A stretch of DNA of 64,000 nt from Octopus vulgaris. Taxonomy: Eukaryota. The stretch's first letter is position 1, and every line of letters begins with the position of its first letter. The stretch lies in assembly GCA_951406725.2 (NCBI GenBank), contig OX597830.1, forward strand, positions 55,056,001 to 55,120,000, written 5' to 3'. Positions 960 to 42,189 of the stretch are shown here, piece after piece. The position numbers and the translations under genes are program-made. The notes below the pieces were generated by a model, which was not told the origin of the DNA, did no database searches, and worked only from the letters and a program-made list of their open reading frames with translations.

Positions 960-2137
960 ATCCATATAACAAGCTTCTTATTACACAGCCACACATATAA
1001 CATCATTATTTTTCTTGTTTTCCTGTTTAGTTTGATTAGTTCATTTAGTGTCCAATTAAGAATATTCTAAGTGTAGTTTACGACCGAGACAGCTAGAGTA
1101 TCAATACCTATTTTATAATTTTTCACATTGAACTCTGTTCTAAGTCCCAACCTTATTTGTTCTATATTGTCTCTTCCTTATTATCTCTTTAATTGATTCT
1201 TAAGTATCTGTATGTTTGGGTTTAGTCTAGTTCTCTTATTTCACTTTCTGTATCTAGTGTGATACTTATCCTCATCATCATCATCATCATTTAATGTCTG
1301 CTTTCCATTCTGGCATGGATTGGATGGTTCGACTGAAAACTGGTGAGCTACACTAGGTTCCAATCTGGTTTCTACAGCTGGATGCCCTTCCTAACACCAA
1401 CCACTCCAAGAGTGCGGTGGGTGCTTTTTATGTGCCACCAGCACAGGTGTCATTGACATAACAACGGCATTGGCTATGCACTCGAATGATACACATTGTG
1501 TTTGGAGCTATAGCCCCAAACACAATATAGTTTGGGGCTATAGCAGAAGCTAAAGCCCCAAACTGACCAAAACATTGTGAATGTATTTGGTTGACAGAAA
1601 ATAAAGAAACCCAGTGAGTGTGTGTGTGTGTTTGTACCCCCTTCCCAACCACTGCTTTATAAACCAGTGTTGGTTTATTATGTTTCTGTAACTTAGCAGT
1701 TTGGCAAAAAGAAACCATAGAATAAGTACTAGGCTTTAAAAAATATGTACTGGAGTCAATTTAGCCAGCAAAACCTTTCAAGATGGTGCTCCAGCATGGC
1801 TGCGATACAATGCCTGAAATAAGTTAAAGAAAAGATAAAAGATACATAAAGCAGTAAATCAGTTTGGAGATTTGGTTGCTATTGCTTGCAGGTCAAGTTA
1901 TAAAAAAAGAAGTCAACCTCACCAGTGTGATGGAAAGTAGAGATTTAGCTGCTGTTTCCTGCTGGTTGAACACCAACATAGAGGCGTCTGTTGGCTTGGA
2001 CAAGTTGTTTTGTCCTAGACCATGTCAACTCTGATCAAACTGAAGTATTCCGCATATGACCATCCCATCAATTTCCAGAATACTTTCATTTGTATATATC
2101 TTGTATTTTTGAAGGGAACCTACTTTTCATCGACAAC

Positions 2138-2198
2138 TGTGATTGTCACACGCTGATGATGGGTCAATATCCAGAAACTCGAGTCCGTGTGTATCATA
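2138..2198 (+). ncRNA. Type I hammerhead ribozyme (minimal, palindromic stem III)
   Basis: CACACG-CTGATGA-TGGGT(caat)ATCCA-GAAA-CTCGAG-TC-CGTGTG. Both core boxes are intact. Stem I is CACACG/CGTGTG, extended by TGTGAT/ATCATA across a bulge. Stem II is 5 bp. Stem III is the palindrome ACTCGAGT. GUC cleavage triplet with the cut predicted after 2185. Confidence 0.85.
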
Positions 2199-2407
2199 AG
2201 TTGAAGACGGGAAGGATGGCTTCCTTTTGCAAATACTGATAGGGCACAGAAAGTGTGTCTATAGCCAGCTCGAGAAGGTGTCCTCCTGGGGCTACAAACT
2301 ACAGTAGCATCCACCCTTAGGAGTTAGCCATATTTAAATGGCAAATACACGTCACGATGTCTTGTATTTTTTCTTTTCTTAAAACTGTTTTTGCATATAT
2401 TAACTTC

Positions 2408-2997: not shown

Positions 2998-3292
2998 GGA
3001 GGCACATGGCCTAGTGGTTAGAGCAGCGGACTCACGGTCAATGGATCATGGGTTCGAATCGCAGACTGGGCGATGTGTGTGTTTGAGTGAAACACCTAAG
3101 CTCCACACGGCTCCGGCAGAAGGTAATGGCGAACTTTTGCTGACTCTCACGCCACAACTTTCTCTCATTCTTTCCTCCTGCATCTTGCAGCTCACCTGCG
3201 ACAGACTGGCGTCCCTTCCAGGTGGGGAACCTGTACATCAAGGAAACCGACCCTAACGAGCCAGGTGTGGCTTGAGAAGGAACAAACAACAA
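2998..3292 (+). mobile_element. tRNA-derived SINE (V-domain-like core) inserted in (TA)n
   Basis: A box TGGCCTAGTGG, B box GGTTCGAATC, core cctgcgacagactggcgtcc and an (AAC)n tail. The core assignment is from memory. Confidence 0.7.
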
Positions 3293-3315
3293 TATATATA
3301 TGCATGCATCTGAAG

Positions 3316-5305: not shown

Positions 5306-5347
5306 CGTATATATATAATTGTGGAGCTTGTGTTTGTCCCATACCCA

Positions 5348-6092
5348 TTTCTTTACTGCCCACAAGGGGCTAAACACAGAGAGGACAAACGGAATAAGTC
5401 AATTATATCGACCCTAGTACGTAACTGGTACTTATTTCATCGACCCCGAAAGGATGAAAGGCTAAGTCGACCTCGGCGGAATTTGAACTCAGAACATAGC
5501 GGCAGACGAAATACCTATTTCTTTACTACCCACAAGGGGCTAAACACAGAGAGGACAAACAGACAAATTAAGTCGATTATATCGACCCTAGTACGAAACT
5601 GGTACTTATTTAATCGCCCTCGAAAGGATGAAAGGCAAAGTTGACCTCGGCGGAATTTGAACTCAGAACGTAGCGGCAGACGAAATACCTATTTCTTTAC
5701 TACCCACAAGGGGCTATACACAGAGGGGACAAACAAGGACAGACATAGGTATTAAGTCGATAACATCGACCCCAGTGCGTAACTGGTACTTAATTTATCG
5801 ACCCCGAAAGGATGAAAGGCAAAGTCGACCTCGGCGGAATTTGAACTCAGAACGTAGCGGCAGAAGAAATACCTATTTCTTTACTACCCACAAGGGGCTA
5901 TACACAGAGGGGACAAACAAGGACAGACATAGGTATTAAGTCGATAACATCGACCCCAGTGCGTAACTGGTACTTAATTTATCGACCCCGAAAGGATGAA
6001 AGGCAAAGTCGACCTCGGCGGAATTTGAACTCAGAACGTAGCGGCAGACGAAATACCGCTAAGCATTTCGCCCGGCGTGCTGATTCTGCCAT
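5348..6092 (-). mobile_element. Head-to-tail tetramer of the same SINE
   Basis: Four units of ~170-185 nt with junctions gaaatacc|tatttctttac at 5515, 5689 and 5873. Only the last unit keeps the 5' head. Confidence 0.9.
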
Positions 6093-7284
6093 ACCACCTC
6101 TTAACACAACCGGGGTTGGCTTTGGGTCATCTCAACTTAGCGGTTCAGCAAAAAAACCGGTAGAATAAGTATCAGGATTAAAAATAAGTACTAGAGTTGA
6201 TTTGTACGACTAAAATCTTTCAAGGTAGAGACAGCACTCCAGCATGGTCGCAGTCTAAACACTGAAATAAGAAATAGATAAAAAAAATAAATTCAATTAT
6301 CTTTACAGCGTATGTAGAGTTCTTAATCCGAAACAGCAAAATCTTAAAAAAAAATTTTTTTTTAAAACAGAAAGAAAAAGAAATCTAGATATTTCCTCCG
6401 CTCCAATAAAATAAAGTAAAGTGATGCATAGAAAGAATTGCATGAATTTAGTTGATTCCTTTCCGTAGTCGCCAACATCAGTCGTTCTCTGCAAACGCCA
6501 GAGTTTGTGAAATAGGGTTAAACAAATAAAGGTTCGCTTTTGAACTTCGATTATCAAAGCAGTTTTTGTCGTTATAAAGATATATTATAAACCAGGATAT
6601 TTAAACAACTTAACCTACAAGCTTTAATGACATTGTTAACTAAGATATATGCGTATATATATATATATTTTAATAATTTTGATATATATTTGAAATAATA
6701 TAAATTAATTAATCTTATGTATTGGCTTAAGTTTTTCATTGTATGATTTGCCTAATAGTGGTTTTATCTCTAATTAAATATAACATATATATATATATAT
6801 TAGTTCAAAACTTTTAAACTATCAAATTTATTTTATACATTATATTTATATTTATTTATTTATATATATTTTTAATACAATAAGTTCTTTCACACGGGTA
6901 TATCTTTATGAGTTTGGATATTAATTTCCTTATATTAATAATAATAAATTATTAATATATATATATATATATATCAGTGGATACGAAAAAGAAGCACACT
7001 CAAAAAGTTAGCGCAGTAATTAATTATATGCCCGATTATAGAGTGATCAATGGCTTCGCATGCATTATATATACACACAAACATATGTGCATTTCAACCA
7101 TGCGGTCATGCTGGAGCACCGTATCTATCAATGTATTTATCTATATAAAGTGTATATTCATGCTGGAGTGCTGTCTCTGCCTTGAAAGATTTTAGTCGAA
7201 CAGATCAACTTTGATTCACTTATGTAACTTTACTGTTGCAGGAGTGACGTATAAGGAAATGTTTTGTTTATTTTTTCTTACTCT

Positions 7285-7459
7285 AAGCACAAAACCCCGA
7301 CATTTTTGGGGAAGGGGACGACCAAGTCGATTAGATCGACCCCGAAAGGATGAAAGGCAAAGTCGACCTCGGCGGAATTCGAACTCAGAACGTAGCGGCA
7401 GAAGAAATACCGCTGTGCATTTCGTCCGCAGTGTTAACGTTTCTGCCAGCTCGCCGCCA
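7285..7459 (-). mobile_element. SINE copy of the same family with an alternative tail
   Basis: cgaccccgaaaggatgaaaggcaaagtcgacctcggcgg...ctgccagctcgccgcc. Confidence 0.8.
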
Positions 7460-7640
7460 TGACAGGAAATGTTATTTTGCAATCACTTGCTCCAGGGTTC
7501 GATTGCAGAGCTGTGGACAAATGTTTCGTAATAATAGTCTCGTGTGTCGACCAACATCCGACTTCGCTTTTCCTCAATCAAAATTATATGTCGTTGCTAT
7601 TATGCAAAAGTGTCGTAAATCCAAAACGTTGCCTTTTTTT

Positions 7641-8034
7641 GGTGATCTTTCGTCTCTAGTAGACCTTTCCGTCGATTTCCGTAAAAATTTTTTTTTCTTT
7701 TACATATGGGCTTGCGGGAACTTTTGAAGTAATATACATACATATACACATACACCGAGTAAAAAATTTCAGTTATCTCTTTCTTTCACACACTAACAGA
7801 AGCACTTCACTTACACAACATACTGTCTGTCTCCCACACCCCATCAAACACACACACATGTCCATCAATGCTCCCATGCACGGTAACTTCAAAAGAACTT
7901 CCCTCGTCATACAATCGCTTTCTCTTAGTCTCTTTCGCTCTCATTACTTCAAAAGTTCCCGCAAGCCCATATGTAAAAAAAAAAAATTTTTTACGGAAAT
8001 CGACGGAAAGGTCTACTAGAGACGAAAGATTGCC
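7641..8034. mobile_element. MITE with ~93-bp TIRs, GG...CC ends and 8-bp TSD (Merlin- or Mutator-like)
   Basis: 7641-7733 is the near-perfect reverse complement of 7943-8034. CTTTTTTT flanks both sides (7633-7640 and 8035-8042). Confidence 0.75.
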
Positions 8035-8653
8035 CTTTTTTTTTTTTCAGAAGACGGAAAATTAGTTTCACCATTCCAATTTCTTTTTAAATTAGCAACA
8101 GTATAATACTTTATTGGGTGTATAAAATCCTAACTCCATGCATGTATGATATTTTCAGCCAGAAATATTTTCACAAAACTGTCGTATGCGTGACTTACTA
8201 CACTTTTGCAAAATGCTAAACCGTTGTACTACACTTTTGACAATTTTCATATCTTGGCATCCGAAGCAGCTGGAAATACGATAGTTTTACCCAAAAGAAC
8301 CGGTTACTGCAAGCAAAATAAAAAATAAAAAAACCGCATTTGGTCAAATTTGGACATACGACAGTTGAACATAATAGCAACGATGTATGTATATATATAT
8401 ATAAAATATATACATACAATATTAGATATGTACATATATACACAAGGATGCTATAGAAGTCAAAAAATACTTCTGTACCACCTAATAGTCACAGAAGTAT
8501 TTTTTGACTGCTATCTTTAGCGATATAGGTACTCATATAGTACCCTTGTGTATATATGTACATATCTAATATTGTATGTATATATTTTATTAATTTGCCT
8601 GTACGGTTGACAATTCGCTTACCACCTGTGATGGTATTTTAATAATACCATCC

Positions 8654-8684
<31 letters not shown>

Positions 8685-8863
8685 ATAACAAAGGGTAAAA
8701 TTAATTAATTAACTAGTAATCAATAATTTCACCAAGTAGAATTCGGCATGAAAAAGGACCATATCACGGTAAACTAAAGTAATACCTTATAATAAGGTTC
8801 TTTGGCTGCTATTTCTAAACTTCGGTATGTGGTAAAGCAAATCTTTGCTGGACCCTATTATAA

Positions 8864-9145
8864 AGTATATATATATATATGTATGTATATATATATATGT
8901 GTATGTATATATATATGTATATATATATATATGTATGTATATATATATGTATATATATATATATATGTATGTATATATATATGTATATATATATATATGT
9001 ATGTATATATATATGTATGTATATATATATGTATGTATGTATATATATATATATGTATATATATATGTATGTATATATATATGTATGTATATATGTATGT
9101 ATATATATATATATATGCATGTATGTATATATATATGTATATATA
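8864..9145. repeat. (TA)n/(TATG)n compound microsatellite
   Basis: Visible directly; source of the YI-rich spurious ORFs. Confidence 0.95.
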
Positions 9146-9577
9146 ATGCACACTCACACAAAGGTAAAAAAAAAAAATGGTGCTTCACGTAATGCATCGA
9201 TATGTTTGTTTTTACGGAGTTATAAGATACTCTTGTGTCGTTCTTACACTGAAATGCAATAAACTATTGATTTCTTTTTATCTTGTAATATATATATATA
9301 TATATCTGCAACGGCGCTATTGTTCACCAATGGTCCACACGAAGTAAATAAGTCTGCTGTGCGCAAGAAGAGGAGACGAGAATCGTCGCGTTTCGCTATT
9401 TTCACAAAATTTTGATCGACAAAAAGAAAAGAACAAAACAAAACAATAAAAACAACAATAATTAATTTACGGTTTGATTTTTTTTTTTTTTTTATAAAAA
9501 AACCCATATAAATTACAAAAGTCTTTAAAGCATTTCAGGGTGCTATAAAATTTATAAATAAACAACGGAATTGTAGC

Positions 9578-10207
9578 TTATTTCTCGATCGTAGCAGCAT
9601 CAACATGTTCGGGTAAAGCTTCTATCCGATGTTTTGTGACTTTCATGGCCATCCCTTCGGGTAAATTCCGCTGTACATACTCCAGAATGGTATCTGCCGT
9701 CGATCCTGTTAAATGAATGAATTCTATGACGCGAAAGTGAGTCCGATTTTCGTATTGGACACGATGTTTCTTATAAATGTGAACAGATTTCAGTAGGGTA
9801 TACCGAGTGATGACCTTGGGCGGCGTAAACACGCTGCCGATCTGGACCCCGAGGCCCTCGGCGGCCATCCGAACGAATTTCTCGTAGCTGTTGATAACAG
9901 CAGGGTCATGTCCTTTCACTTCCACATCTATTTTACGATATAAACAGTCCAGTTCTGCATCAGAATCGGTCAGTTGACCATTAATATTATGATTTACAAC
10001 AACGTGATCTTCTTTTATGTTGGGGGAGGTCGGTCCATGGCTGAAACAAGAGACAGGGCTATAGTTGGAGATGGAGCCGGGTGTACGCGGTAAATGGCTG
10101 CTGCATTTTAAAGGATTTAGCCTAACGGGGAACAGCAGAGTAGACGTGCATCGAGAATTTCTAGAGACATGTTGACATAATTTAGAAATATTTGTCAAAA
10201 GTTTCAT
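9578..10207 (-). CDS. MRPS10: Mitochondrial 28S ribosomal protein S10 (uS10m), single coding exon, 209 aa
   Basis: ORF from the ATG at 10207 (MKLLTNISK..., basic/Ser-rich presequence-like N-terminus). It contains the S10 domain motifs [29 protein letters not shown] and [27 protein letters not shown]. Confidence 0.95.
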
Positions 10208-10239
10208 TATTATTAGACGTTGCACAAATTAAAGGAGAA

Positions 10240-10440
10240 ATGGTCGATAGCTGTCGTCACTTCCGATACTAGTACGTCACTTCCTCTTTTTTTTTTCCAT
10301 TTCATTCCCTCTCCTTCTTTTCGCCGTCGCCGCCACCACCTTACTTCACGCCGCTGCTGCCACCACCTCACTTCTCGCCGCCCCCACCATCTCACTTCTC
10401 GCCGCCGACGCCACCACCTCACTTCTCCTCCTCCTTGTAA
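10240..10440. promoter_or_regulatory. CpG-rich bidirectional promoter (MRPS10 / divergent gene)
   Basis: Two GTCACTTCC(G/T) ETS-like motifs (about 10256-10264 and 10277-10285), the second overlapping a CRE-like ACGTCAC. High CpG content. Lies between the MRPS10 ATG and a plus-strand donor at 10695. Confidence 0.65.
10321..10432. repeat. GC-rich degenerate tandem repeat (~21-27 nt unit, CGCCGYYGCCGCCACCACCTCACTTCT), ~4 copies
   Basis: Repeated ccaccacctcacttc units are visible directly. Confidence 0.8.
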
Positions 10441-10444
10441 AGTA

Positions 10445-10694
10445 AAAGTCAAGACAAAATAGAAGTCGTAGAACCGAAAACTGTCGGAAATTGACGAAGT
10501 GATAAATCGTTCTATTCCGATCGAGTCGACGGAAACTACCGAACAAATTTGATAGAGGCAAAGGAAAAGAAAGGAAAGCAATAATAAAAAAAAAGCGAAA
10601 AGTCTTGACAAGATGACTCCACTTTGTTGCCTGCTATGGCTTTGATATGTTTTAGATTATTACACTGACCATTTCCAACGAAAATATTTGACTG
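10445..10694 (+). other. Probable non-coding first exon of a divergent, unidentified gene (start approximate)
   Basis: Consensus donor CTG|GTAAGT at 10694/10695, just downstream of the promoter. Only short uORFs (ATG at 10613 gives MTPLCCLLWL*). Confidence 0.6.
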
Positions 10695-11139
10695 GTAAGT
10701 AAAGATTTGAAGCTAAACTAAACTACTGCTATCTTATAAAAGAATATATAGCACGCCTTTATAAAATAAACTTGATTTCAAATCTTCGTAGACATTGTAT
10801 AAGGTTAAAATTTTTCTGCCTTGTCGAAAATGTGAGCAGAAGATAGGAAAAAAAATATAGGCTTGCATCACACACGCACGTAACAGAATTATATTTGTCT
10901 GAAGATTGTTGTTAATTGTATATTGTTGATTATTTAGTGAAAAATAAAAACGATCTGTTAAGTGGTGTGTGTGTATTTATATATATAATATATATGTATG
11001 TATGTATGTATAGCCGTAGCAGGACTTAGCCATAACCATATTTTTACTCTTCACTCTACTTGGTAGTAACGACTGCTGCTATGGCGAAACAAGACTAGCA
11101 GTCTGCACACACGTAGACACACTCATACATACATACGCA

Positions 11140-11147
11140 TATATAAG

Positions 11148-11180
<33 letters not shown>

Positions 11181-11710
11181 GTATGTATATATATGTGTGT
11201 GTGTGTTTTATATATATGTATATATATGTGTTATATATATATATGTGTGTTATATATATATATGTGTGTGTTATATATATATATATGTGTGTGTTATATA
11301 TATATATATGTGTGTGTTATATATGTGTGTGTTATATATATATGTGTTATATATATATATGTGTGTTATATATATATGTGTTATATATATATATATATAT
11401 GTGTGTGTTATATATATATGTGTGTGTTATATATATATATATGTGTGTGTTTATATATATGTGTGTGTGTGTTATATATATATATATATGTGTGTGTTAT
11501 ATATATATATATATGTGTGTGTTATATATATATATATATATATGTGTGTGTTATATATATATATATGTGTGTGTTATATATATATATGTGTGTGTGTTAT
11601 ATATATATATATGTGTGTGTGTTATATATATATATGTGTGTGTGTTATATATATATATGTGTGTGTGTTATATATATATGTGTTATATATATATATATAT
11701 TGTGTGTGTA
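11140..11710. repeat. Compound microsatellite, (GT)nT(TA)m higher-order repeat
   Basis: Visible directly. Confidence 0.95.
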
Positions 11711-11977
11711 TTATGCGTTATAGTAGTTTTATGTATATTGACTATGTAATAAAAATTTTGTGTAAAATAAATTTGTACAATCTATATATTATGTATAATT
11801 TAGAAATTTTAGGTAAATTAGTTTGTATATATTATATATTACGTATAATATGAGTATGTATATATATAAATATATGTGTATAAAATATTGTAATTATATA
11901 TGTATGTAATGGATATATAGAGTAAATGTGCATTTTGTATATAATATGCATTTATTGTCGTATATATTAAATATCGC

Positions 11978-12200
11978 CTATATAATAGTATGCATATATT
12001 GCGTGTGTGTGTGTCTATATAATGTGTGTATATATATATATAATGTGTATGTATGTATGTATATATATATAATAATGTATGCTCTATGACTATATAATAG
12101 TATGCATATATTGCGTGTGTGTCTATATAATGTGTGTATATATATGTGTGTATGTATGTATATATATATATATATATAATGTATGCTCTATGACTATATA
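11978..12200. repeat. Tandem duplication of a ~110-nt low-complexity unit
   Basis: ctatataatagtatgcatatattgcgtgtgt...aatgtatgctctatga occurs twice. Confidence 0.8.
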
Positions 12201-13179
12201 CATAGTACTTTAACTAGTGCGGCCATGCTGGGGCACCGCCGTAGTGTCTATATATAGACATATAGTGTTTATATAGTTTTATGTTTGACAAAATATCTGT
12301 ATATCGTTATATAGTGTCGATATAATTCCATATAGTAAAATATAGTGTTCTGTAGAGCATCTACATCTAAATATAGTGTGTGTGTGTATATATATATATA
12401 ATTTATGTTTTGTGTGTTATATTTACACACTTAATTTGTGTGTGTGTGTGATACATATTGGGGGTTGTCCGTTTCTACGTATGTATATGCGCGTATATAT
12501 AGTGAGGACGAAAAAGAGAGACTATGTCGTATTTGTATGTGTGTGTGCCTGTGTGTAATGTATGTATATGTAATGTATGCGTGTGTGTACAATGTCTGTG
12601 GTGCGTTTTCATGTTGGTGTTACTTATATACGTTATGTATATGTGCAATTCTTGTATGTTTGTGTGTGTTTCATGTATATGTGTGATGTTGTGTGTGTAT
12701 ATTGTGTGGATCTAGGTGTATATATATATATCGTGTGTGTATGCCTCTCTCGCAATATACATATATATATACGTATATATGTCTGGTGCATATTATATGC
12801 AGTATATATATATACATATATTATTTCTGTATGTGTGTATATTCACGTACGCAAATCTCCTACTCAACCCATTCTACCGTCTAATACTCTCTGACTCGTC
12901 TCCCCACTTTCCTTTTCTCTCCCTTATATTATTCCCTTCCCCAACACACACACACACAGTCTCTCTGCTATTGCTACCACCACCCTCCTTCCATCATACA
13001 TTAACTTCTCACCTTCATTCCTCTTCTTGCTCGCAGTCGTGGCGGCTCTTTATAATCCTTTTAGTTACAAGGTGACCTCATGGATGTTGGGACCACGATA
13101 AGTATGCCCTATACACTCTAAAAAAGTGGTTGGTGTTAGGCAGGACATCCATCCATAGAAGCCATGCTAAATCTGAAAT

Positions 13180-13645
13180 ATCCAAGACGTCTGGGAAAAG
13201 TTCAGAGGATTATTACCTTTGTTGTTTAAAAAAAAAAGAAGTATTTTCTCTTAGAGTGAAAGGTAGATTGTATGATGCTTATGTATGAACTGCATAACTA
13301 CATGGTAATGAGACATGGCCCCTGGATGCAGAGGGGTTGCGAAGACAAGAAAAATAATTAATTTGGTATGCTCTGCTGAAAGTGCAACATGAGTGTGTAT
13401 GAACAATGAACTAAAAAATATATGGTGAAAGGAAAACGGAGCTTAAGAGGAATCAGATATAGTGTGCGGGGGAGATGACAGCACTGGTATGGAAGTGTGT
13501 ATAGATAGACAGCTGTATAATTGTTTTAATGTGGATGGAGCTTGTGAAAGAGGGAAACTTTGGAAGATATGGGTGAAATATTGATGGCTTCAGAGGAGAG
13601 ATGACAAAGGACCATGATGATTGGCAATAGGCCCTGCTTGAGAAC
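13180..13645 (+). mobile_element. Decayed RTE-clade LINE 3' fragment
   Basis: WEKFRGLLPLL...SLRVKGRLYDAYV...LHGNETW, homologous to 21096-21250. Confidence 0.7.
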
Positions 13646-15139
13646 ATCCACCCGTCATGGTGAGACTAAGGTTCTGAAAGCGTAATGTGTATGCACACAA
13701 CCAGACCTTTTACCCAGTTTGATTCTATCATGCTGTCCCCACCACTCTCTCAATTCCCTGTCATCACTGATCCCTCCATCACTCTTCTAACTACTACAGT
13801 ATCCTGCAGTTGGAAGTGGAATTACTTATTTCATCATCTTTTTTTTTTTTTCACCAGTTATCTCTCCACTCTTTGCTATCACTTCCTTTGGCATACATTC
13901 TTTATTCCTAACGGCATCTGTTTCAACTGGACCCCAAACCATGTGGCATGTGATTACAATGCACACTTCTTAACCGTGTGTGTGTGTGTGAGTGTGAGAG
14001 AGAGAGAGAAAGATCATCTTTTTATAGCTGCTTTCCTTCCTGTCATGGATAGGATGGTTCAATAGGATTCAAAAAGTTGGAGGACCTTACCTTCCTCTAA
14101 TATCACCTTCCTATCACCAGCCACTTTACATAGTGTTCTGGATGCACTTTTTGTAGCACCAGCACTCTAGAGGGTGCCTTGCTATCAGCAAGACTAAAGA
14201 ACCTTGTGAAACCCTCCTTTCTTGCTGTTCAGATCAGTTATTAAACATTCAATGTACTAGGTGCTTTTTATGATACCAGCACTGTTAGTATTTGCCTTGT
14301 AGCTTGCAAAGCAAAAGAGATTATCATATGAAGGAAAGGAACAGGTTTATTGTGAGAGGATGGTAACAGAGAGAGGGGAAAAGTAAAGTCAAGAGTTATA
14401 TGGAAGAAGGGTAAGAGGACAGTATGATAATGATGCTGGAGTTGGTTGAGCAGGTGGACCCAGTGATGGGATGGGATGGGTCAGTCTGTCTGCCATGCCA
14501 GCATGTATTGGACAGTTGGTTAGGATTCAAGACAGTTCTTATTAGAGTTACGCAAGTTTATTGTTGGGAATAGATAGGGCTGCTACTAGGGAATGTGTTA
14601 ATAGTAAAAGGTAGCATGAAGAGGTTGAGTAGAAGCAAGTGTAGCGCTACCTATTGTTAGATATAGGTGGGTAATGAGAGAGAGAGGTAGTGTCAAGGAA
14701 TTTGTGAGAGAGAATTTGAGTGATAAGGGCAAAAGATAAGGTGGAGTAGGAGATGCAGTGCTACTTCACATTATTTATGATGGAAGAAATGGTGTAGAAG
14801 ATAAATGATGATGAGACCAGAGTATATTGTCATGGTAACATGTCTAAAAGAAGAGCTGGTAAAGGCTGCTAGCCTGTAATTACTCCTGATTTATGTGTCA
14901 TGACTTGGGATTTGGGTGGAAGGAGGAGTAGTAGAAAAAACGGAATATTCAATATGCACAAATCAAACACTTTCCTCTCAGTTATGGGTGTCATGGTACA
15001 AGAGATGAGAGGATATAGAATATGTACAGTAGTTAGAATAGATAGTTGTGTGACAAGAGGGTTTGAAATGTATATGTGCAATGATGTGTGCAGAGAGGGT
15101 ACTCAATAGGCAAAGGAAAGGGTAGGTGCACTAAGCTTG

Positions 15140-17365
15140 CACTGGAAATTCTTTTCTGCAGTACCACATATCACATATCGTCTTGAATAATCTCCGTCAT
15201 CAGATATAACATCTTGAGATCATTTTTCACCACTGCATCCCATACGGTTCTTGTTCTCCCTCTCCCTCTGGTACCATTCACTTTGAACACTTGGCATTTG
15301 CTTATGCAGCTGTCATCTTCCATCCACATTACATGCCCATACCAATGCAGTCTCCTCTCTCATACGTTTACATCTGCTTTCCTATGAGTTGGACAGGTTC
15401 TTTCCAGCACAACATCTTGCTTCTCTTGTGTTTCTTTGTCATCTCCTCAAATCAGCTTGTAACCACTTTTGTCTATGTCCTCTTTGGTCTTCCATAATTA
15501 CCTTTATGGATATCCTGGCACTTCTTTACTCATTTTTTTATCCTCTATATGCATCACATCTGAAGCAATGCTATCTTCATTTTTGCACATTAAAACTGAT
15601 TCCTTTATACTTAGTTTATCTGTTAGCTCATTTACACCAAGTCATTCATGCATATTAACATTGTATATGCAGCAGATCCTGCATGTTTTGTTTCTTTCCC
15701 GTCTTTACACATCCTCTATGTTCAGTACCCATGTCTTGCTACCATGCAACATTGCACTATGTACACACATAACATACAATCTAACCTTCACTTGAAAAAG
15801 AATGTATTTGTTACTTACCGAAGCAATAGCTCTCTGAACTTATTTTGTCCTATCTTTATTATGTTTACTGTGCTTTATTATGGTAACTGTGCTTCCTCTG
15901 TTGTTGATTATGTTGCCCAGGTAATAAACAATTTCGTTACTCCTACAGAGCCTTTTAAGCACTGAAAGATATTTATTTTACTGCTGCTCTGACTGCTAAC
16001 TATTTTGTATATCTGCATCTTACAAAGTTTTTATTCATCATCTGCCTGTTTATAATCTCACTACTCTGTACATAGTTCATATTGTGTACAGTACATGGAG
16101 TTCCTACTATCATGCTTGACCATTTCCCAAATGATAGAAGAATCATTTCTAAATGGTCTTCACCAAGTTTACTATGAGGCCTTTGAATGCCAGATTTTGC
16201 TTCCATGTCTAGAATTCTCTAAGTCTTTCACAAGCTCTGCTGTAAGGACTAGGTATGAAAGAGTACCCATTTCATCTGTTATAGCTTGGAGAAGTATGAA
16301 TAGGAAGGGATTGAGAGCCTTAATGAACACCTACTCTTTGGCTTGCATATTTGCCTGGTTGGAAAATAATCAAGTGTTTAGTTAATTTCTTGAAATCCTT
16401 GTTTGCTAATGGACAGTTCATTTGCATCACAAAACTAGAAGCCTTGATCCTTCCTCATACAACCATGTCTATAGCCACTATGTACTCAGACAGCCATTCA
16501 GTGTACCCAATATGTTCAGTAAAGACACCAGCCAAAATAATGATGTAGCTGTTATTTGTTATCAAAGTGGCTCACAAAAGTACATCATAACAGGAGTCCT
16601 TTTACCATGTCAACCAGTCTTGGTTGTGATATATAAGCAGAGATAACAGTTGCTATTAATTTGCCTACTAGTCTAAGCTTAATTACATATTCTAATTTCT
16701 TCAGTTGCATTATCCGTTTTCAGCCACCAGTATGCCTACTACACCTAAACTATCATTGTTACCTACCCAGAAGAATTTGAACCAATGTTCTTTGTCTGTG
16801 GAAAGTCTGGCTGAGGTTCACCTCCATCCCACCTCTTGCATGTAACATATCTACTCATCCTTACTCAAAACATCTCTATAATCTCATCATATTTACCTCA
16901 GTGTGCCAACATTGATAGTTGCAGCCTTGAAGATTTTTTTTTTACCTGATTAAAGGATAACTTGTGATGTAAGAGATGATGCCTGAGAGCTGTTTTGTGC
17001 ACCTGAAAGGAAATGTGTGATTGTTTGATAACAGTTAATGGGGTTCTCACACATGACCAGGTGTTTGCATCTAACCACTCCATTACCATCTGCAGCTCAA
17101 GCATCTTGAGTGTTAGTCCTATATCATCCATACATATCACCTAGCCATAGTAATGTGGTCTTCCTTCTTGCATACTGTGACTAATCTCTGCTGTTTATCT
17201 CTCAGCTCCTCTATTACCACATTTATTCATACTTAGCACTACAATCCAGCAAAGCATACTTGCTTTATTTCTCTCCGATACTTGCACATCCTATCTTCAG
17301 TGCCCATGTCTCACTACCATGTAGTACTACACTTCGTAAACAGGCAACATACAATCTATCCTCTG
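15140..17365 (-). mobile_element. Decayed RTE-clade LINE fragments (RT and C-terminus, at least two pieces)
   Basis: Minus strand gives GHVMWMEDDSCISKCQ...GRGRTRTVWDAVVKNDL, VKVRLYVMCVHSAMLHGSKTW, and a degenerate GVxQG/LxPFLF RT motif near 16300. Confidence 0.7.
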
Positions 17366-20300
17366 TTGCATCCTGTCTTCATATTTAAACTTAAATTCAC
17401 TTTTCTTACCCCCCCCATGCCAATATCAATTTCACTCATGACAATATTACAGTAATTTTAATTTTGAAAAGAAAAACAAAAACATGAAATGTTATAGTTA
17501 AGAACAAATCAAATTACTTTTTGGACTTTGCTTTTCTAAGAAATGATTAAAAGTTATTACATGTTTGTTTGAAAGTGGTTGGCATTCGGGAGAGCATTTT
17601 TTCAAATGATATAATTTTTGGTTTTTCTTTAAAAGTTAAAAAGAACAACCTATATGGTTAAAATGTTTGCTTCCCAGCCATATTGCTTTGGGTTTAGTCT
17701 TACTGCATGATACTTTAGGCTAGTGTCTTCTTCTCTAGCTCTGGGTCAACGGAAACCTTGTAAGTGGATTTGGTAAAGGGAAACTGAAAGAAACTCGTGT
17801 GTTGTGGATGTGCCTCCTTGTCTTTATATTGTATGACAGCTGTAAATGAGTGACACTGTTGTACAAGCAGTGTCATTTGTTTCCAGCCTTATGTGGAAAC
17901 ATATCTTGTCATGGGGAATTATCATCTTACTTGGAAACAGTTTGTTGTCCATCAAAAAATACACTCCAGCAAATTCCATCTAGTCCATGCAATCATGGAG
18001 ATGCAGACATTAAAACAATGATGATGATACAGGAAACATGGCAATGTATTAAATATGAAGAAACTACCCAGATGTTATATCTCCTGGTACTTATAATGTT
18101 TATACAGAATGACAAAAGTGCTGTAGCTAACACTATTGCTGTAAAGAAAGGCTTGAAAATTATTTTGAGTTGTTAAATGTTTTTAACATCTTCCACACTG
18201 AGTTTGATAGTTAGACAGGTTAGAGAACTACATTGTTTTCCAACATCTCTTTTGGCATTGTTACATTGGTGGGATGCTCTCCCGAATGCCAACCACTTTA
18301 GAGAGTGTACTGGGTGCATTTTCTTGTGGTCCCAGCACTAGTGAGGTAACTCACAAGACTAAGATCCCAACTGAGTGAAGCTACAGTAGAGAGGGAAGTG
18401 ACTTTATGCGAGGAGATTGGAGGTTAAAATATGAAAGAATGAGCAGGAACAGATTTCTTGATGTAGAGAAGGTACATGATTACTTTGCATTGTATATTTT
18501 GAAGATGTGGGAGATCATACTGGTCAAAATTAATGGCCGGAGCTGATAGATGAGCATTATTTATGCGAATAGTCATGCTTTCACTGGTGTTCAGTAGGGA
18601 GGAGATTTATACAATTCATTCCAGTTAAGGGCAAAGCTGTAAGAATGATGATAAAAGTAGCTAAAAATATTCACTCAGTTGAAACTGGTTCACTTCGGCT
18701 TCACTAAGAAATTTACTATGTTCAACAAGCTATTAGATTTTTTTCTGCATAAATGAGGTTTCACAGATAAAAGTCACAAAGAGGGAGACAGTGAAAATTT
18801 TCAGCCAATAAGTTGATATTCTTAATGCAACATATTACAGTGATGCATTGGCTAATGTAAATAAGAGAAATACTCAAAACGGTAAAACAAAACAGAACAT
18901 CATTTGGTATAGTCCCCTTTCAACAATGCACTTAGAACTACAGTAGAACATATGTTTCAAATTGATATATGTTTCCACCCTTTCCATAGATACAATAAAT
19001 TATTTAATGAAAATAATGTTAAACTTGCCCACTGAATTACTTCCAACTTCACTTCTCCCAACCTCCACAAAAGAAACCAATGTTGGGCAACATCAACCAA
19101 AACTGGAATTGCACTAGCCAGACGAAACTTCCCACCAAAGTCAAAACTGTAGTGAAATAGATAATATATAAACAAGAAATTCAAACAACACATTCAAAAT
19201 AGGACTAACATCAAACTCTTTTAAAGTTCTCTCTAACGAATACAGACCTTTCTAACCATTAGACAATTCTCAGTCTTCATTCATATGGGAATTGAAAAAC
19301 AAGCTTACTCATACACCATGAACGCAGCATCATCAGTCAAAATCTATGAGATTCTATTTGCAAGTAATATTTATCAATAAACAATCTCAACATGTTACCT
19401 CAGAATCTATAAAACATACAGATAGTTCACTTCTTCAGTATACACACATTGATAAATTTTTATTAACTTTATCTCATTTGACAAATACATTACATTAAAG
19501 AAAAGAAAAAAAAAACGAATCTTCATGTATACATATTGAACATCATCAAAAGATTCATACACATGAAATTAAAATGTAAAGTTTAATATGGAATGATTTT
19601 AGCATAAAGCATGAATAAACTTCAATAATGAATAGCTTGGATAGAAATGATAGTGTAGGTGCTGCTGCTTATGATGGGTATGTGAAATCAGATTCCATCT
19701 TGTAGATCATCCATATCATTTCTGTTAAGTTTTAATTATGTTGAAACATTAAGTAGAATAGGTGGCCAATTGGTTGGGGCTTTGGATGAATTGCTTTGTG
19801 ATAATCATTCATTCCATTTCTCTGTACTCCATATTCAAATTTCACTGAGGTCACCCCTTTCGAAGTACTGGTCAAATACTAAAGTTGATTCTTCTCTTTC
19901 TCCTGTTTTTTCTTTCTGGGAGAAATCAGCTATGGTCAGACCTAGAGAGATGGGTTCACCATGTATATTGATGGAATTCCTACTATTTTATCAACCTTTT
20001 AGCATTTAAACTGGCCATGTCCACACCAAATATTCTACTAGTTTTATATATTCAAACTGATCAGATCTAGCCCTTCATACTTACCCCACAATGCTGTTTT
20101 AAAAATAAACAATCATTGAAATCTTATAAAAATGACATTACAATCCTTTGCCAAACTTTAAGATTTTTATCTTACACTTTATAGTTTTGTTACAAACATA
20201 TGATTGTCTATTATATATACTGTTCCTCACACTTAAGGACCCTCCTCCTCCTCAAGATCATGATCTGACAGTTTCCCTTTAGTTTTGGATTCAGTTAGCT

Positions 20301-20989
20301 ATGTATGAGAACAGTTGTACCTGTTTAATGATCGAGAGTCTTTACTGGTGGTGAGTGAAACATCTGTCCAAGTGTAGCAATTAATCTTCAATACATTTGT
20401 TAAATTATCCACTCTGTTTATCAGTGTCGAGTTCTTTCCATGGTTTGTCAGATGCTTTATCTTTAAAGCCGCGTAAACAAAACATCACCCACATATTACA
20501 CACACTCGTATACACATAAGTGAAGATTTGTTTCTGCTTTGTTCCTTTCTAACTCAATTAAATAGACCAATGATGCAAGGAGATCAGCTGTGTGCATATG
20601 GTCTCTTTTCTATTTGATTGACAAAGTGGTATTTGTCTGTAAAGAATACGCATACATATATACATGCATATAGACATGCATGCACACGTATTCCATATAT
20701 ATGCATACATATATACAATCATACATCCACACACACACATATATATATACGTGTTTGTGTGTGCGTAGGTACATATTTACAGTGTATAAAAAAATAAATT
20801 GTAGCATGTTTCACTTAAATACATATTGTTATATATTCATTTACACTAAAATGACATGTTGTTTAGTTGCAGGTCAGCCCTTGAATGAGTAGACCTGTCA
20901 TCAAATGGTTTATTTTTCTATATATAATCTTTGTGTGTGACAAATGTGCAGGTGCAATAAGCACTAAAAATGCATAGGCAATAGACTCC

Positions 20990-21862
20990 CTCAAATGCTT
21001 GAGGGAATCGTTAGAAGTGGTAGATAGCTTGTTACCTAGGCGACCAAGTTAGCAATGGAGGAGGAAGTTGTGAAAGTGTAGTTGCTAGAATAAGAATGGG
21101 CTGGGTAAAGTTCAGAAAGATTCTACCTTTGTTGGTAATTAAGGGCCTCTCCCTCAGAGTGAAAGGTAGATTGTATGATGCCTGTGTATGTACAGCTATG
21201 TTACATAGTAGTGAAATATGGACTTTAATTACAGAGGACTTGCAAAGGCTCAAAAAAATGAAGCTAGCATTGCCCTGCTTAATTAGTAATGTCACTGTAC
21301 ATGCACTACAGAGTGTAAATGATTTAAGAGGAAAATTGGATATAAGGGGTATCAGGTGTTCTAGAGAGAAAACTTCGCTGGTCTGCTCATGTGATGCGTA
21401 TGGATGAGGACAGCTCTATAAAGAAGTGCCGATCTCTAATTGTGGAAGAAGTAGACCCAGGAAGATGTGGGACAAAGTGGTGAGAAAGGATCTTCAGATG
21501 CTGAGCCTCACTGAGGAAATGACAAGAGATTGGGAGATGTGGTGGTTTTCTGTACTTGATAAGTCATGTCAAGCTAAGTAAAATCGCTGTCTTCCACACA
21601 CTCAGACTGGTCCTTTCAGATGCTGGTACCTCTTAGAAAGCAGCTGTGTCAGTGCTGTATTAACACACCTGTGTCAGTGCTGCATAAGCACACCCTTGAT
21701 GTTATCATGTAAAAGGCACCCAGCACATTCTGTAAAGTAGTTGGCATCAGGAGGGGCATCCAGCTGTAGAAATATCATGACAGATAATTGGAGTCGGTTC
21801 AGCTGACCAGCTCCTGTTAAGCTGTCCAACCCACGCCAGCATGGAAAATAGACATTAAATGA
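20990..21862 (+). mobile_element. RTE-clade LINE 3' fragment with 3' UTR
   Basis: ESLEVVDS..YLGDQVS...RIRMGWVKFRKILPLL..GLSLRVKGRLYDACVCTAMLHSSEIW, followed by the shared tail module. Confidence 0.85.
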
Positions 21863-21879
21863 TGAGGGTGGTTACAGAT

Positions 21880-22300
21880 GATCTATCTGATGTTTGTTTA
21901 GCTGGTTGCGCCTGTCTGACGTCTGTTTAGCTGACTGCATGTGTCTGACGTCTGTTTAGCTGACTGCATCTGTCTGACGTCTGTTTAGCTGGCTGCATCT
22001 GTCTGACGTCTATTTAGCTAGCTGCATCTGTCTGACGTCTGTTTAGCTGGCTGCATCTGTCTGACGTCTGTTTAGCTGGCAGCATCTGTCTGACATCTGT
22101 TTAGCTGGCTGCATCTGTCTGACGTCTGTTTAGCTGGCTGCATCTGTCTGACGTCTGTTTAGCTTGCTGCATCTGTCTGACGTCTGTTTAGCTGGCTGCA
22201 TCTGTCTGACATCTGTTTAGCTGGCTGCATCTGTCTGACGTCTGTTTAGCTGGTTGTATCTGTCTGACATTTGTTTAATTGGCTGCATCTATTTGATATC
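21880..22300. repeat. 29-bp minisatellite (TCTGTCTGACGTCTGTTTAGCTGGCTGCA), ~14 copies
   Basis: Contiguous tandem units with no spacers. Confidence 0.95.
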
Positions 22301-23912
22301 AGTTGTCTTCCTCCCCTCTATCTCTATTTATGTGGTAATCATCCATCTGTTCCCTCTTTCCTAATCTACTGGCAGTTGACAACATACCTCATGTTCATGT
22401 GATATTTCAAACTGCTGTTTAGCAATGCTGAATAACATACACCTCCAGAGACTTTTAAATATTGTGCTTGAAATAAACTGTAAATGCTCAGAAAATGGTG
22501 AACATCTCTATCATACCTTGTACAGCAGTGTAACAGACATTATTCTAAATGTCCATAATATATATTGTATGTCAGTAGAGTAGACACAATTCACATCTTT
22601 AAGTAGATCTGTGATTTTCTGTTCCTCTTCTTCCCTAGGTTGGCAAAGGTACTTCAACCATGACCACCCTACATTTTTGTGTATCAGAGACTTTGTTCAA
22701 CAACATATTGTTTTTCTTTTTAATACTGTATAGTATGATTTTTGAGAATGATTAACTACTGTCTCTAGCAGCTTAAACTACCACATAGTGGTTGACCGTC
22801 TTTGTTACATATGCTGAATTGAGTTCCTGCAAAATGTATTTGTTTGAATTGTCGTTGCTTACCATACTATAATGTGGGATCATTTGGCCTTCTATAAATG
22901 TCATCCAGATCTTTCTGAAATTCCACTGGACTTTTAAAAAGAATGGATACATTGAATAATGTAGTTCTAGATACTGTAGGTCTGAAATAAAACTAGAATG
23001 GTCACTGCTGAAACATTTGTGGTCATAGGTCAGCTGGAGTTAGGCCAGCTTTAGATTGAGCAACAGTAACAACATTGGCATCTTATTTGCTGGTCCTGGT
23101 AGAAATAGCAGCAGTCAAACATTTATGACATCACATGTCTTAAAAAGACAAAAGGATGCTTTAGATAATGTAGTCAAACTCTCTATATGTGTGTTGTAGT
23201 TATGTGCATAAATACATAAACGTTTGACTGTTCAATTCTTACTATAGCAAAGAATATGGAGTCTGTTATGTGTAGCTATGTAATTAAATCTACACAATAC
23301 TTTCACACAGGTATCTTAATGAAGCACTGTTAATTGGAAAGATGCATTAAACTATAGTATGAATTTAATTACGTACCTTCTGTCTCTGTCTGTCTCTCTT
23401 TCCCCTCTCCCTCTCTCTTCCTTACTGTCCCTTGACTGTCTACTTTGCAGCATCCATCTTCATTTCTTCATGTCTATCTCCATATCAAATGTCTCTTTGT
23501 GATTTACAAATTTGACTGATGATGATGGTTATACATTTATACACACATACACTCACACATTCTTATCTAGAATTATTTTGTTTTCATTTGCAAAGGTAAT
23601 TGGAGAAACTTGTTAGAAATTAATTTGTTAGCTCAGTGGTAAAAGTATTTTGGATCTTTTAAAAATTTGGCTTTATTGCTTAATTGACCTCAATACATTA
23701 ATGAAATAAAATGTATTTTCTAATGCATTTTATTGAAGAAAGCAAGCCAAGCTGATCCTAATGCTATCTGAAATCAGAACATAATGATTTTGAGGAGAGT
23801 GAGAACGGTCGATACCATTGACTCCACAACCCCTGAAAGCTAGAAGCAACATTGACCTCTTGACAGAATTTGAACTCCAAACATAAAGAACTGAACAATG
23901 TGCTAATGAAAG

Positions 23913-39205: not shown

Positions 39206-40349
39206 TATGTGTGTTTATAATGCTTATAAGCAGAAAACAGGCATGTTATTCAATGCTTGATAGGACATACATGCATTTCTGCATGTAATTTTTTTCAGCG
39301 TTTTACTGAAACACATGTATGTCCTATAAAGCAATGAATAACATGTATTTTCTCCCTGTTATTATCATTTGTATTGGTCCATATCTTGCACACCAGCCTA
39401 TCCAGAGGTTGATGTCCCATGTTGTACTGCACTGGACACTGGATGGAGTGTGGAACCCACTACTAAACCCAATTTTTGGTTGTTGCACTTTACTGTGCCC
39501 TCATTTTCGGTGTGTTTGTGTGATGCATGAAGGGCTTAGTTGTTACAGTGGTGGACTGCTGACTCAAAGTTCATTGGTTACACCTAGTTGTAATGAATTT
39601 GTGTTGTGTTTTAAAATAAGCATATTACATTCTTTCATCTATTTAACTGACTGCCATTACTTCACAACTTTGGGAAAAATTCTCCAGAAACCACATATGT
39701 TAATAATTTACTTAATACTATGTTATCACAATTGTATACCAACACCTATCTTTACCCTGTGTTCAAGTCTGTAACTCAGTTTTATTTCATTTCCACTTAG
39801 TAACTTTTAATGAAAGCATGAATCTCACAGCATATTCTATCTACAAGTCAAGTCACTAGGTGCCAATGTAATAAAATCAATGCTATTGAGATCTGGGCTT
39901 TGCCAAATAGGAAGGTCTTGTTTAGTAGATATCTTTAACAAGACATTATACTTGTGGCCTCAAGAGCCAGTAATATTGTTACCCACCTCCCTTGTAAGTT
40001 GTTTGGAGTTGAAGTATTTTCTGTCCCTAAAGGGCAGGTTCATTGCTTAGGATGTCTATTATACTGTACCCAACTTTGTGTTGTAATACTTGCTCAACAC
40101 TCCTGCTATCTCCTTCATACACACCTATTTATTATACATTGAATCTTGCTTGCAATGTTACCCAGCCAAACTGGCACATACTGGGAAAATACTATGAATT
40201 AAAGAGTAGTTGTATACTGTCAACATGACAGTCCCATAAAGGGAATCACACCACCGCTATTTAGCCCTAGGAATCATCCACGCTTCCTGTCGGTCTTGAC
40301 ACATTTCCTGTGTCCTTATGTTTACAAAGGGGAGACAAGCACCCCCCTC

Positions 40350-40425
40350 CAGCTAAGCCTGCATCCAAAGATATGTTTCTGAGTCTTGCTCATCATCAGT
40401 CTGGAGTAGCATGGCCTGCTAGCTG
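40350..40425 (-). ncRNA. Type I hammerhead ribozyme (minimal stem III, one probable decay mutation)
   Basis: Minus strand reads TCCAGA-CTGATGA-TGAG(caaga)CTCA-GAAA-CATA-TC-TTTGGA. Stem I is TCCAGA/TTTGGA with outer pairs TGC/GCA, GCC/GGC and CAGCTA/TAGCTG. Stem III ACATAT is one change from the palindrome ACATGT. Cut predicted after 40370. Confidence 0.75.
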
Positions 40426-42189
40426 AAGATACTTGTCTAGACTTTGTAAACATATATAATTTCAGTGGAGTAAATTCACTGATCACAAAATATAGAAATA
40501 TTAAATTTCTAAATATCTCAGAGAGATATAAGCAGTGGTGGAACGATAGAGCTCTATCGTTCCACCACTGCTTATATCTTTTTTTGTTGCCTGAGAATAC
40601 CACTGTGGTGGTATATGAAATTGTAAGTGAGAGGTATAAAAGTAAGCACTATAATGTATTCGGTTTCTACCATTTACAATGTCCTATGTGTAGATCTATA
40701 TATATTCTGTTTTTTCTTTTATTTTTTAATGAGTGTGTGATGAACATACTGGACTGTTGACATCATGACTATGACTTCAGACATTTCTGTAGCTATTCTG
40801 TCTGTCTTTATTGTCTTGTGCAATGTATATAACTACTTGCTTCACTCTCTCTTCTTTGCTGAGGATAGCCTGCTATGAAAGCAGTTGTTCTGTTCAAATT
40901 TGCAATAACAAAAATTGCTTGTGCTTGTGTAAGAGAGGGAGCAAGTGAGAAAAAGAAAGATGTAAACTCATTGGATTGTAGGAGCAGTACTGTCTTTGTA
41001 CTCTGTCTTTGTACACTGTCTTTGTACTCTGCATGCACAAACACTTTCTGGGGAAATTATAGAAAATCTAATCAATAAATGTTCCTCAACTGAAACTAAT
41101 TTGGTAAATATTACTGCTTTTCTCCTTTTATCTCAGTGTTTCTAATTGAAGTAGTTTCTAACAAGATGTTTTCCGTTTCTTCCACTCAATAGTGGTAATC
41201 CTTAGCACAGGGATAAGCTATGTTTCTACTGTATTAGTTGAATCAACAGTGTGTATAGGCATAGCTGTGTGGTTAAGTTTGCTTCCAAACCACATGGTTT
41301 CAGATTCAGTCCCACTGCAAAACTTGTCTTTGTAGTATAGCCCCAGGCTAACCAAAGCTTTGTGAGTGGATTAGTTGAACAGAAACTGTAAGAAACCCAT
41401 TGCATGTACTGCGTATGTGAGAAATAATAGGTGTATATTTGCACTGCCTTGTCTTAATATTGTATGGTAGTTGTAATTAGTGTCACTCTCATCTCATATT
41501 CTGCGGGGTTTAAGAAATTATCTACCCTTGCAAACTGGATGACTTTTACCTACCACAGCATGATTTGAAAACCATCACTCAAACCATGCATCACATAATC
41601 CACAAGTTCTCTCGCCCCCAAAATTGCAGCCAAGCCTTTTAGTCTTTTACCAGAAGATCTTGATGTCATATATTGGATGTAAATAAGCATCACTTGTCAT
41701 ACTAGAGTTGTTTGTTTCCAGGTTTTTATTTTTGTTTTTCGAGAAACATTCCTGGCCATGGGAAATATTATCTTGGAAACAGATGAGGGTTGGCACTAGG
41801 AAAAGTGTATCTGGCTGTAGAAAATCTGCATTCACTAATTCCATCTGATCCATGCTGTCATGGAAAAGTAGACAGTAAAGGATAATGATACCTCCTCCTT
41901 CATACACACACATGCCACAGGCTTCTTCCAGTTTTCATTCACTTATTTCATTCACAAGGTATTAGTCAACCTACAACTATGGGACACTAGCCAACAGTGG
42001 CCAAACTATTTTGTTACATGAACCCTGGTTGAGAACCACTGGTGTAGGGTCTTTAGTTGAGCAGCCAACTGAATATTGATCATTGAAACTGATATCATAT
42101 CCACTTATTTGCATTGTATATGGAAGCCACTTTGACACTACTGTTCTGTCTCCCAAAAGATGAAGCTCCACATCTACAATGTGTTGGTC

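Follow-up and report, generated by a model that had tools for sequence, protein, structure and literature searches.

A conserved RNA fold shared by octopus hammerhead retrozymes, a likely guide to the copying start of a Penelope-type reverse transcriptase

The closest described counterparts of the octopus repeats analysed here are the metazoan non-LTR retrozymes of Cervera and de la Pena (2020, PMC7229834), especially the mussel units of 350–390 bp. As described there, these elements are like the octopus repeats in their type I hammerhead, non-coding unit of about 350 nt, GC content (41–43%), occurrence as tandem copies, highly self-paired predicted circle and coexistence with Penelope-like elements (PLEs). 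The octopus insertions, by contrast, are mostly about one unit long with inverted arms, and they are known here from sequence alone. A PLE helper for retrozymes has already been proposed (PMC7229834; 10.64898/2026.07.22.740005). According to a 2020 review (PMC7761336), in the part cited here, retrozyme repeats lack any conserved motif that would point to a helper, whereas the octopus subfamilies share a covarying fold together with PLE footprints. Vertebrate retrozymes (Li, Clavereau and Pollet 2026, 10.64898/2026.07.22.740005) have the same proposed helper and the same spectrum of monomers, dimers and multimers; in Xenopus the reported link to PLEs is sequence homology to their pseudo-LTRs (pLTRs), whereas in octopus it consists of insertion footprints, with no pLTR homology found. 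No mollusc is named among the four invertebrates in the cited part of that report, and the words 'octopus' and 'cephalopod' are absent from the main text of PMC7229834. We found no description of a cephalopod retrozyme in the literature searched, with Dfam, Repbase, repeat libraries and several supplements lying outside that search; the main texts of the cephalopod repeat papers PMC13282606 and PMC8967140, and one supplement of PMC13282606, contain none of the words 'ribozyme', 'hammerhead' or 'retrozyme'.

The second system for comparison is that of the EN+ PLEs (Craig et al. 2021, PMC8557442; Arkhipova et al. 2013, PMC3846280; Frangieh et al. 2024, PMC11167929), which, as the octopus insertions do, show partial tandems, an inverted 5′ copy, a one-sided tail, two internal starts, short target duplications and AT-rich or (TA)n targets. 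Unlike these PLEs, the octopus unit has no ORF, and its tail measures 45–60 nt as opposed to the 30–40 published. In vitro, the tail of a PLE is reported to correspond to the stretch that separates two internal start sites, with uncut RNA as the main template (PMC11167929).

The window analysed here is a stretch of 64,000 nt of the Octopus vulgaris genome (contig OX597830.1, positions 55,056,001 to 55,120,000), and all coordinates below are window positions. A sequence-only reading had described two hammerhead loci in it, in opposite orientations, each followed by a homologous module of about 130 nt. The motifs that it quoted are found in the same order at 2199–2335 (+) and at about 40215–40365 (−). 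It had named the significance of the alignment between the two downstream segments as a check, and the local alignment scores 89, against 48.3 ± 5.8 for 2,000 dinucleotide shuffles, none of which reached 89 (maximum 74), so that the segments are indeed homologous. Among 1,276 window segments compared, the best non-self match of the copy 1 segment is copy 2 (runner-up 72). The GRCACA/TGTGTC hairpin is kept, as had been read, with both states of its variable pair present among 17 aligned copies, A-U in 11 and G-U in 6. Identity between the two subfamilies to which the copies belong is about 42–61% per 50-nt bin along the whole unit of ~350 nt. Because the homology spans the entire unit, the 130 nt are not uniquely conserved: the proposed homology is real, but there is no stand-alone module, only a part of a 349–362-nt unit.

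We consider it very probable that the two loci represent two subfamilies of a non-coding hammerhead repeat with a 349–362-nt unit, a non-LTR retrozyme, likely copied in trans by the reverse transcriptase (RT) and GIY-YIG endonuclease of a PLE, and that the shared 130 nt form the middle of a conserved fold likely to position the start of copying. Searches of the 2.8-Gb genome gave 2,301 first-look candidates for relatives of copy 1 and 2,823 for copy 2; among the 40 scored in each case, full-length matches are 95–97% and 89–93% identical, respectively. In the scored relatives, the stretch preceding the ribozyme is the same as the one that follows the module, and the element is therefore a circularly permuted unit. 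This unit is 349 nt long in a tandem at locus L011 (subfamily 1) and 354 nt in a trimer at locus L043 (subfamily 2). Natural tandems, comprising dimers and one trimer, have periods of 349–362 nt, most copies are near one unit in length, and the direct repeats observed are partial tandems of the unit. Tandem copies are what the sequence-only reading had proposed to look for in a retrozyme. The longest ATG ORF in three natural tandems is 30–60 aa, and the GC content of natural units is 0.41 and 0.43. Among the origins that had been suggested, the non-LTR retrozyme thus fits, with a type I hammerhead, a short tandem non-coding unit and GC below 45%. On the features that can be tested from sequence, the repeat is a metazoan non-LTR retrozyme, a known kind of element; what is new here is a cross-family fold that frames the likely starts of reverse transcription.

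Each of the two window copies falls into a high-copy subfamily of its own, and two further subfamilies lie beside other loci, one an older relative of subfamily 1 and the other a young subfamily of 360–362 nt with a U3-A8 core. A module profile was run on 100 unselected 10-kb stretches (1 Mb) and gave 17 clusters at E ≤ 0.001, one of them merging two insertions; the profile was partly built from matches in the same sample, and a first profile built without them matched the same loci. The reversed 1-Mb sample gave no matches to the module profile. Extrapolation from the 1-Mb sample suggests about 48,000 related insertions genome-wide (Poisson range 28,000–76,000). The family had been described as old and dispersed; it is dispersed, and old at the level of the superfamily, but each window copy has many relatives that are 89–97% identical. 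The unit is also covered by assembled contigs of runs not on record as RNA, in which contig depth is no measure of expression or of circles.

Insertion 1 extends over 2102–2359 (+) and is a 5′-truncated, permuted copy of subfamily 1, running through unit positions 266–349 and then 1 to about 170 (BLAST against the natural L011 unit). The left copy of its target-site duplication, 12 nt at 2099–2110 (+), is identical to the right copy at 2360–2371 (+), and the insertion stops just ahead of the latter at site 1, one of two end sites described below. The type I hammerhead motif, with a short palindromic stem III, is read at 2147–2191 (+), with a predicted cut at 2185|2186. The upstream arm of a rod extending stem I lies at 2102–2152 (+) and is predicted to form a duplex of −41.1 kcal/mol with 2186–2240, compared with −21 to −24 kcal/mol with the arms of unrelated subfamilies. 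Downstream follow helix A, the GRCACA/TGTGTC hairpin, at 2243–2259 (+; 91% of cells paired and two-sided changes in 2/6 pairs across 17 copies, recovered by RNAalifold); helix B, a long hairpin with an internal loop, at 2262–2294 (+; 85% paired, 7/12 pairs two-sided); the 5′ strand of helix D at 2301–2308 (+; 7/8 pairs two-sided, on the 6–8 copies including the tail); and hairpins E (weak, 73% paired) and F (89% paired, 3/5 pairs two-sided) at 2314–2342 (+). Hairpin F is the last hairpin ahead of end site 1, and the partner of helix D sits in the tail, which is absent from the 3′ end of copy 1.

A contig of sequencing run X15 joins 1869–2105 directly to 2368–2562 and corresponds to the empty site of insertion 1; it may derive from another haplotype or from a related population, since its left piece is only about 95% identical. 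The 5′ junction of copy 1 is present in a contig of run X17, which carries another organism label. Insertion 1, missing from the one contig and with its junction in the other, may therefore be polymorphic. No ORF of at least 150 codons adjoins copy 1 or copy 2. Copy 1 is followed directly by SINE-like repeats of very high copy number, at 2400–2900 and 3000–3300. Elsewhere, the window contains four tandem copies of a 184-bp unit (92% match, 5341–6057) that resembles a common interspersed repeat, and a minisatellite of 14 copies of 29 bp (91% match, 21881–22290) unrelated to the retrozymes.

Insertion 2 has a total extent of about 40203–40579. Its sense arm, at 40203–40552 (−), makes one full turn of subfamily 2, through unit positions 168–354 and then 1–172 (BLAST against the natural L043-trimer unit), and joins a short inverted 5′ arm of 29 nt at 40551–40579 (+; unit 168–196) with a palindrome at the junction. 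The type I hammerhead motif is at 40364–40405 (−), with a predicted cut at 40370|40369 and a broken pair in stem III, where copy 2 has A in place of the G of its relatives; its predicted ribozyme is therefore probably impaired. Helices A, B, E and F occupy 40217–40314 (−), with the 5′ strand of helix D among them at 40249–40257. The 3′ strand of helix D, at 40532–40540 (−) in the tail part, is complementary to 40249–40257 and is placed by the circular fold of a natural unit. The two strands of helix D in copy 2 could pair only in a circle or a multimer.

The hammerhead cores noted at both loci are present, at 2153–2177 (+) and 40399–40376 (−). The bare core pattern occurs five times in the window against 3.55 expected, not above chance. 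Rfam gave no match in the window at gathering scores, and in three tandem loci at E ≤ 1 it gave only sub-threshold matches, mostly to microsatellite-driven miRNA models and none to a hammerhead model. The ribozyme call hence rests on the stems and on conservation across copies: the core, stems I–III and the cut triplet are legible in subfamilies 1–4. Single-strand folding of the two ribozyme stretches is not significant (z −1.49 and −1.20). Stem III consists of one or two pairs with a palindromic loop, a feature that the octopus motifs share with the minimal and variant hammerheads described in PLEs (Cervera and de la Pena 2014, PMC4209133), whose short palindromic helix III implies dimeric cleavage, an architecture expected to cleave as a dimer. 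The U3-A8 core variant described in that paper also occurs in subfamily 4 and in the pLTR motifs of resident PLEs. Unlike the hammerheads of PMC4209133, subfamilies 1 and 2 usually have C-A at the base of stem II and a long stem I, and subfamily 1 mostly carries U4C. The core is CCGAUGA (U4C) in 22/30 top subfamily-1 copies and CUGAUGA in 5, mostly CUGAUGA in the older relative of subfamily 1, and UUGAUAA in 14/14 subfamily-4 copies. In the cited literature, U4C lowers activity in vitro and still permits viroid infection (PMC3088659). The high-copy subfamily 1 (L001–L030) expanded with the U4C core, whereas its older relative has the canonical core, and the C-A mismatch at the base of stem II is kept in most copies of subfamilies 1 and 2. 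The canonical core of copy 1 probably arose from CpG decay.

The way in which the copies end was read from 72 top copies of three subfamilies (29, 30 and 13), including both window copies and leaving aside L023 and L125 as duplicates. In 69 of these 72, which are the best full-length matches and for which the end-site windows were fixed after the data had been seen, the sense 3′ end falls at one of two sites, unit position about 163–176 or 211–238; the tail from site 1 to site 2 is about 45–60 nt. More than half (39/72) carry an inverted 5′ arm. Both ends could be classified in 29 of the two-armed insertions, and in 27 of these one arm stops at each site. The unselected sample is consistent with this pattern: all 17 clusters reach profile position 162–173, with 5′ starts that range from 2 to 135, and both strands are present in 7 of them. 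A (TA)4 run lies within 40 nt of the 3′ end in 28/72 top copies (background 6.4%) and within 100 nt in 10/17 unselected clusters (background 11.9%). Non-simple direct repeats of at least 8 nt flank 24/72 insertions, compared with a mean of 3.6 and a maximum of 8 in 200 permutations; many of these duplications are 9–13 nt and some of the 24 are microsatellite-like, and target duplications of 8–10 bp are reported for PLEs (PMC3846280). The combination of partial tandems with a 5′ copy in inverted orientation and a tail at just one end is described as the PLE signature (PMC8557442; PMC3846280).

The insertions do not stop at the cleavage site but extend upstream of it into what is the 3′ part of their own unit. 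What is fixed is their 3′ end, located past the module and followed by unique sequence or (TA)n. The proposed 'ribozyme-capped' element, with an RNA end made by self-cleavage, is not borne out by copies that run through the cut. Doubled segments diverge by 2.9–6.2% within an insertion, compared with 2.7–6.7% between loci; as they differ as much as copies at separate loci do, a circular template is not demonstrated. Rare shared variants are commoner within insertions, and recurrent differences are nearly all transitions.

A mechanism that would accommodate these footprints starts with transcripts cut by the hammerhead, probably as a dimer given the short, palindromic stem III. By keeping the two ends of the monomer close to each other, the long stem I rod would favour their ligation and thus a circular RNA. 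On the DNA side, a PLE protein would make nicks staggered by about 12 nt in AT-rich targets, and its RT would start internally, either at site 1, about 12–17 nt past hairpin F and inside helix D, or at site 2, 45–60 nt further. From there it would run on past the cleavage site over a variable distance, along a template that may be a circle or an uncut multimer; the inverted arm would arise when copying also began at the other site.

The first 55 nt after the cut are predicted to pair with the 60 nt before the core, extending stem I into a rod, of which the CCTTTTGCAAATA motif quoted in the sequence-only reading is a part. In eight copies, the rod duplexes have predicted energies of −29 to −61 kcal/mol within the same copy and −16 to −34 kcal/mol between unrelated subfamilies; 6/8 are clearly beyond the cross-family range and 2/8 overlap with it. 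Hairpins A, B, E and F and the long-range helix D, which pairs with the tail, are kept in 17 diverged copies with a mean column identity of 55%. For 34 hand-drawn pairs in these copies, 86.3% of cells are paired, as opposed to 79.0 ± 0.9 in shuffles and 36–44% with slid partners, and two-sided changes occur in 20/34 pairs as opposed to 12.4 ± 2.0 in shuffles, in a structure drawn by hand from the same sequences, with a shuffle test that kinship can inflate, helix D on 6–8 copies and helix E weak. RNAalifold, run without the hand-drawn structure, recovers helices A, B and F, with 10/17 pairs two-sided. Natural units folded as circles give z scores of −5.2 and −9.4; for the two window modules taken by themselves, folding is not better than in shuffled sequence (z −1.86 and −0.64). 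The distance from hairpin F to end site 1 is about 12–17 nt, which places this site within the loop closed by helix D, and site 2 follows the tail. Our model is that the shared 130 nt are part of a conserved fold likely marking where a PLE-type RT starts copying.

A different function for the module is compatible with the retrozyme identity and differs from our model on this point only. Conservation could reflect selection on the circular RNA, for ligation, stability, evasion of degradation or binding of host proteins, rather than recognition by the RT, with the starts set by nearby single-stranded sequence. Conservation of length and pairing extends over the whole unit, beyond the module; the first 55 nt past the cut have partners upstream of the core that are particular to each subfamily; and the examined PLE families initiate on RNAs without such a fold, all of which this explanation would account for. 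Against it stands the constancy of end site 1, which is fixed in all 17 unselected clusters while the 5′ starts vary and which thus ties the start to a position in the fold. Selection on the circle is a serious possibility, if somewhat short of an even one.

As candidate helpers, the genome contains young PLEs of at least four families with many intact RT and GIY-YIG ORFs, of 781, 784 (two families) and 775 aa. We class these provisionally as Neptune-like from their CxxC linker rather than from a tree, this linker being described as a feature of the Neptune clade (PMC8557442). The ORFs were located at L091 (2245–4590), L241 (2278–4632), L245 (2365–4719) and L286/L287, and three show a second upstream ORF. 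A fifth family examined is more degraded. Resident PLEs end in (TA)n, and several have inverted arms and tails. Their terminal repeats hold minimal hammerhead-like motifs, with U3-A8 cores in three families and a CCGAAGA core in the 775-aa family. In a heterogeneous PLE-like family (L276–L285), the 3′ regions are long, C-rich and microsatellite-like, and there are apparent frameshifts close to the endonuclease domain.

The retrozyme units could instead be solo or truncated pseudo-LTRs of an autonomous PLE outside our sample, or deletion derivatives of an extinct one, with the fold as its cis signal; this is close to the Penelope pLTR that had been suggested earlier. All insertion features are of the PLE type, as this would predict, and 24/57 Xenopus retrozyme families are reported to be homologous at their termini to known elements, nearly all of them PLEs (10.64898/2026.07.22.740005). 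The octopus unit, however, has no sequence match to the pLTRs of the five resident families. Across 99 loci of these families, BLAST and the module profile found no module in a pLTR; the profile matched 8/99 loci, and all eight are separate neighbouring insertions (seven read base by base, L283 by strand and position). The sequence upstream of the ribozyme in the top copies is the unit's own tail and never the end of an ORF, and the window copies have no ORF beside them. Retrozyme insertions in (TA)n tracts beside PLE copies mimic a pLTR–ORF layout at L231 (3290–3640), L285 (1517–2272) and L261 (3150–3405). GIY-YIG or RT remnants near L010, L016, L035 and L110 were considered as partners and turned out to be unrelated neighbours. 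The partner search comprised a GIY-YIG family search and three protein searches of the genome, each scoring 131–150 of 6,136–23,432 candidates; with at most 150 of several thousand candidates scored, and Naiad, Hydra and other clades outside the search, an unsampled PLE parent is possible. As no autonomous element bearing the module was found, we infer the PLE helper from footprints only. Taking both sides together, we regard a pseudo-LTR origin as unlikely.

A LINE 5′ UTR, or a SINE with a 5′ end made by self-cleavage, is very improbable: a ribozyme followed by a conserved structured segment does have the look of ribozyme-capped LINEs, but there is no clustering of 5′ ends at the cut, the end that is fixed lies on the 3′ side of the module, the flanks past the module are unique or (TA)n with neither shared sequence nor an ORF, and neither window copy has an adjacent ORF of 150 codons or more.

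The preferred reading therefore remains that of non-LTR retrozymes copied in trans by a PLE. A bolder proposal, which we put forward tentatively and think rather doubtful, is that they form an ancient cephalopod superfamily of ribozyme circles with a dedicated fold that recruits PLE RTs in trans and sets both start sites, and that is not derived from the terminal repeat of a resident PLE. If true, this would be a naturally occurring element by which a telomerase-related enzyme recognises its template, and tens of thousands of insertions would map it. So far, proposals for the helper of animal retrozymes have drawn on co-occurrence and, in frogs, on pLTR homology. In octopus, the same helices recur in many diverged subfamilies, with PLE-type end sites at a set distance from them, and the genome also holds young intact PLE genes. 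The combination of fold, end sites and resident genes makes the questions of which protein, which helices, and circle or multimer directly testable in vitro.
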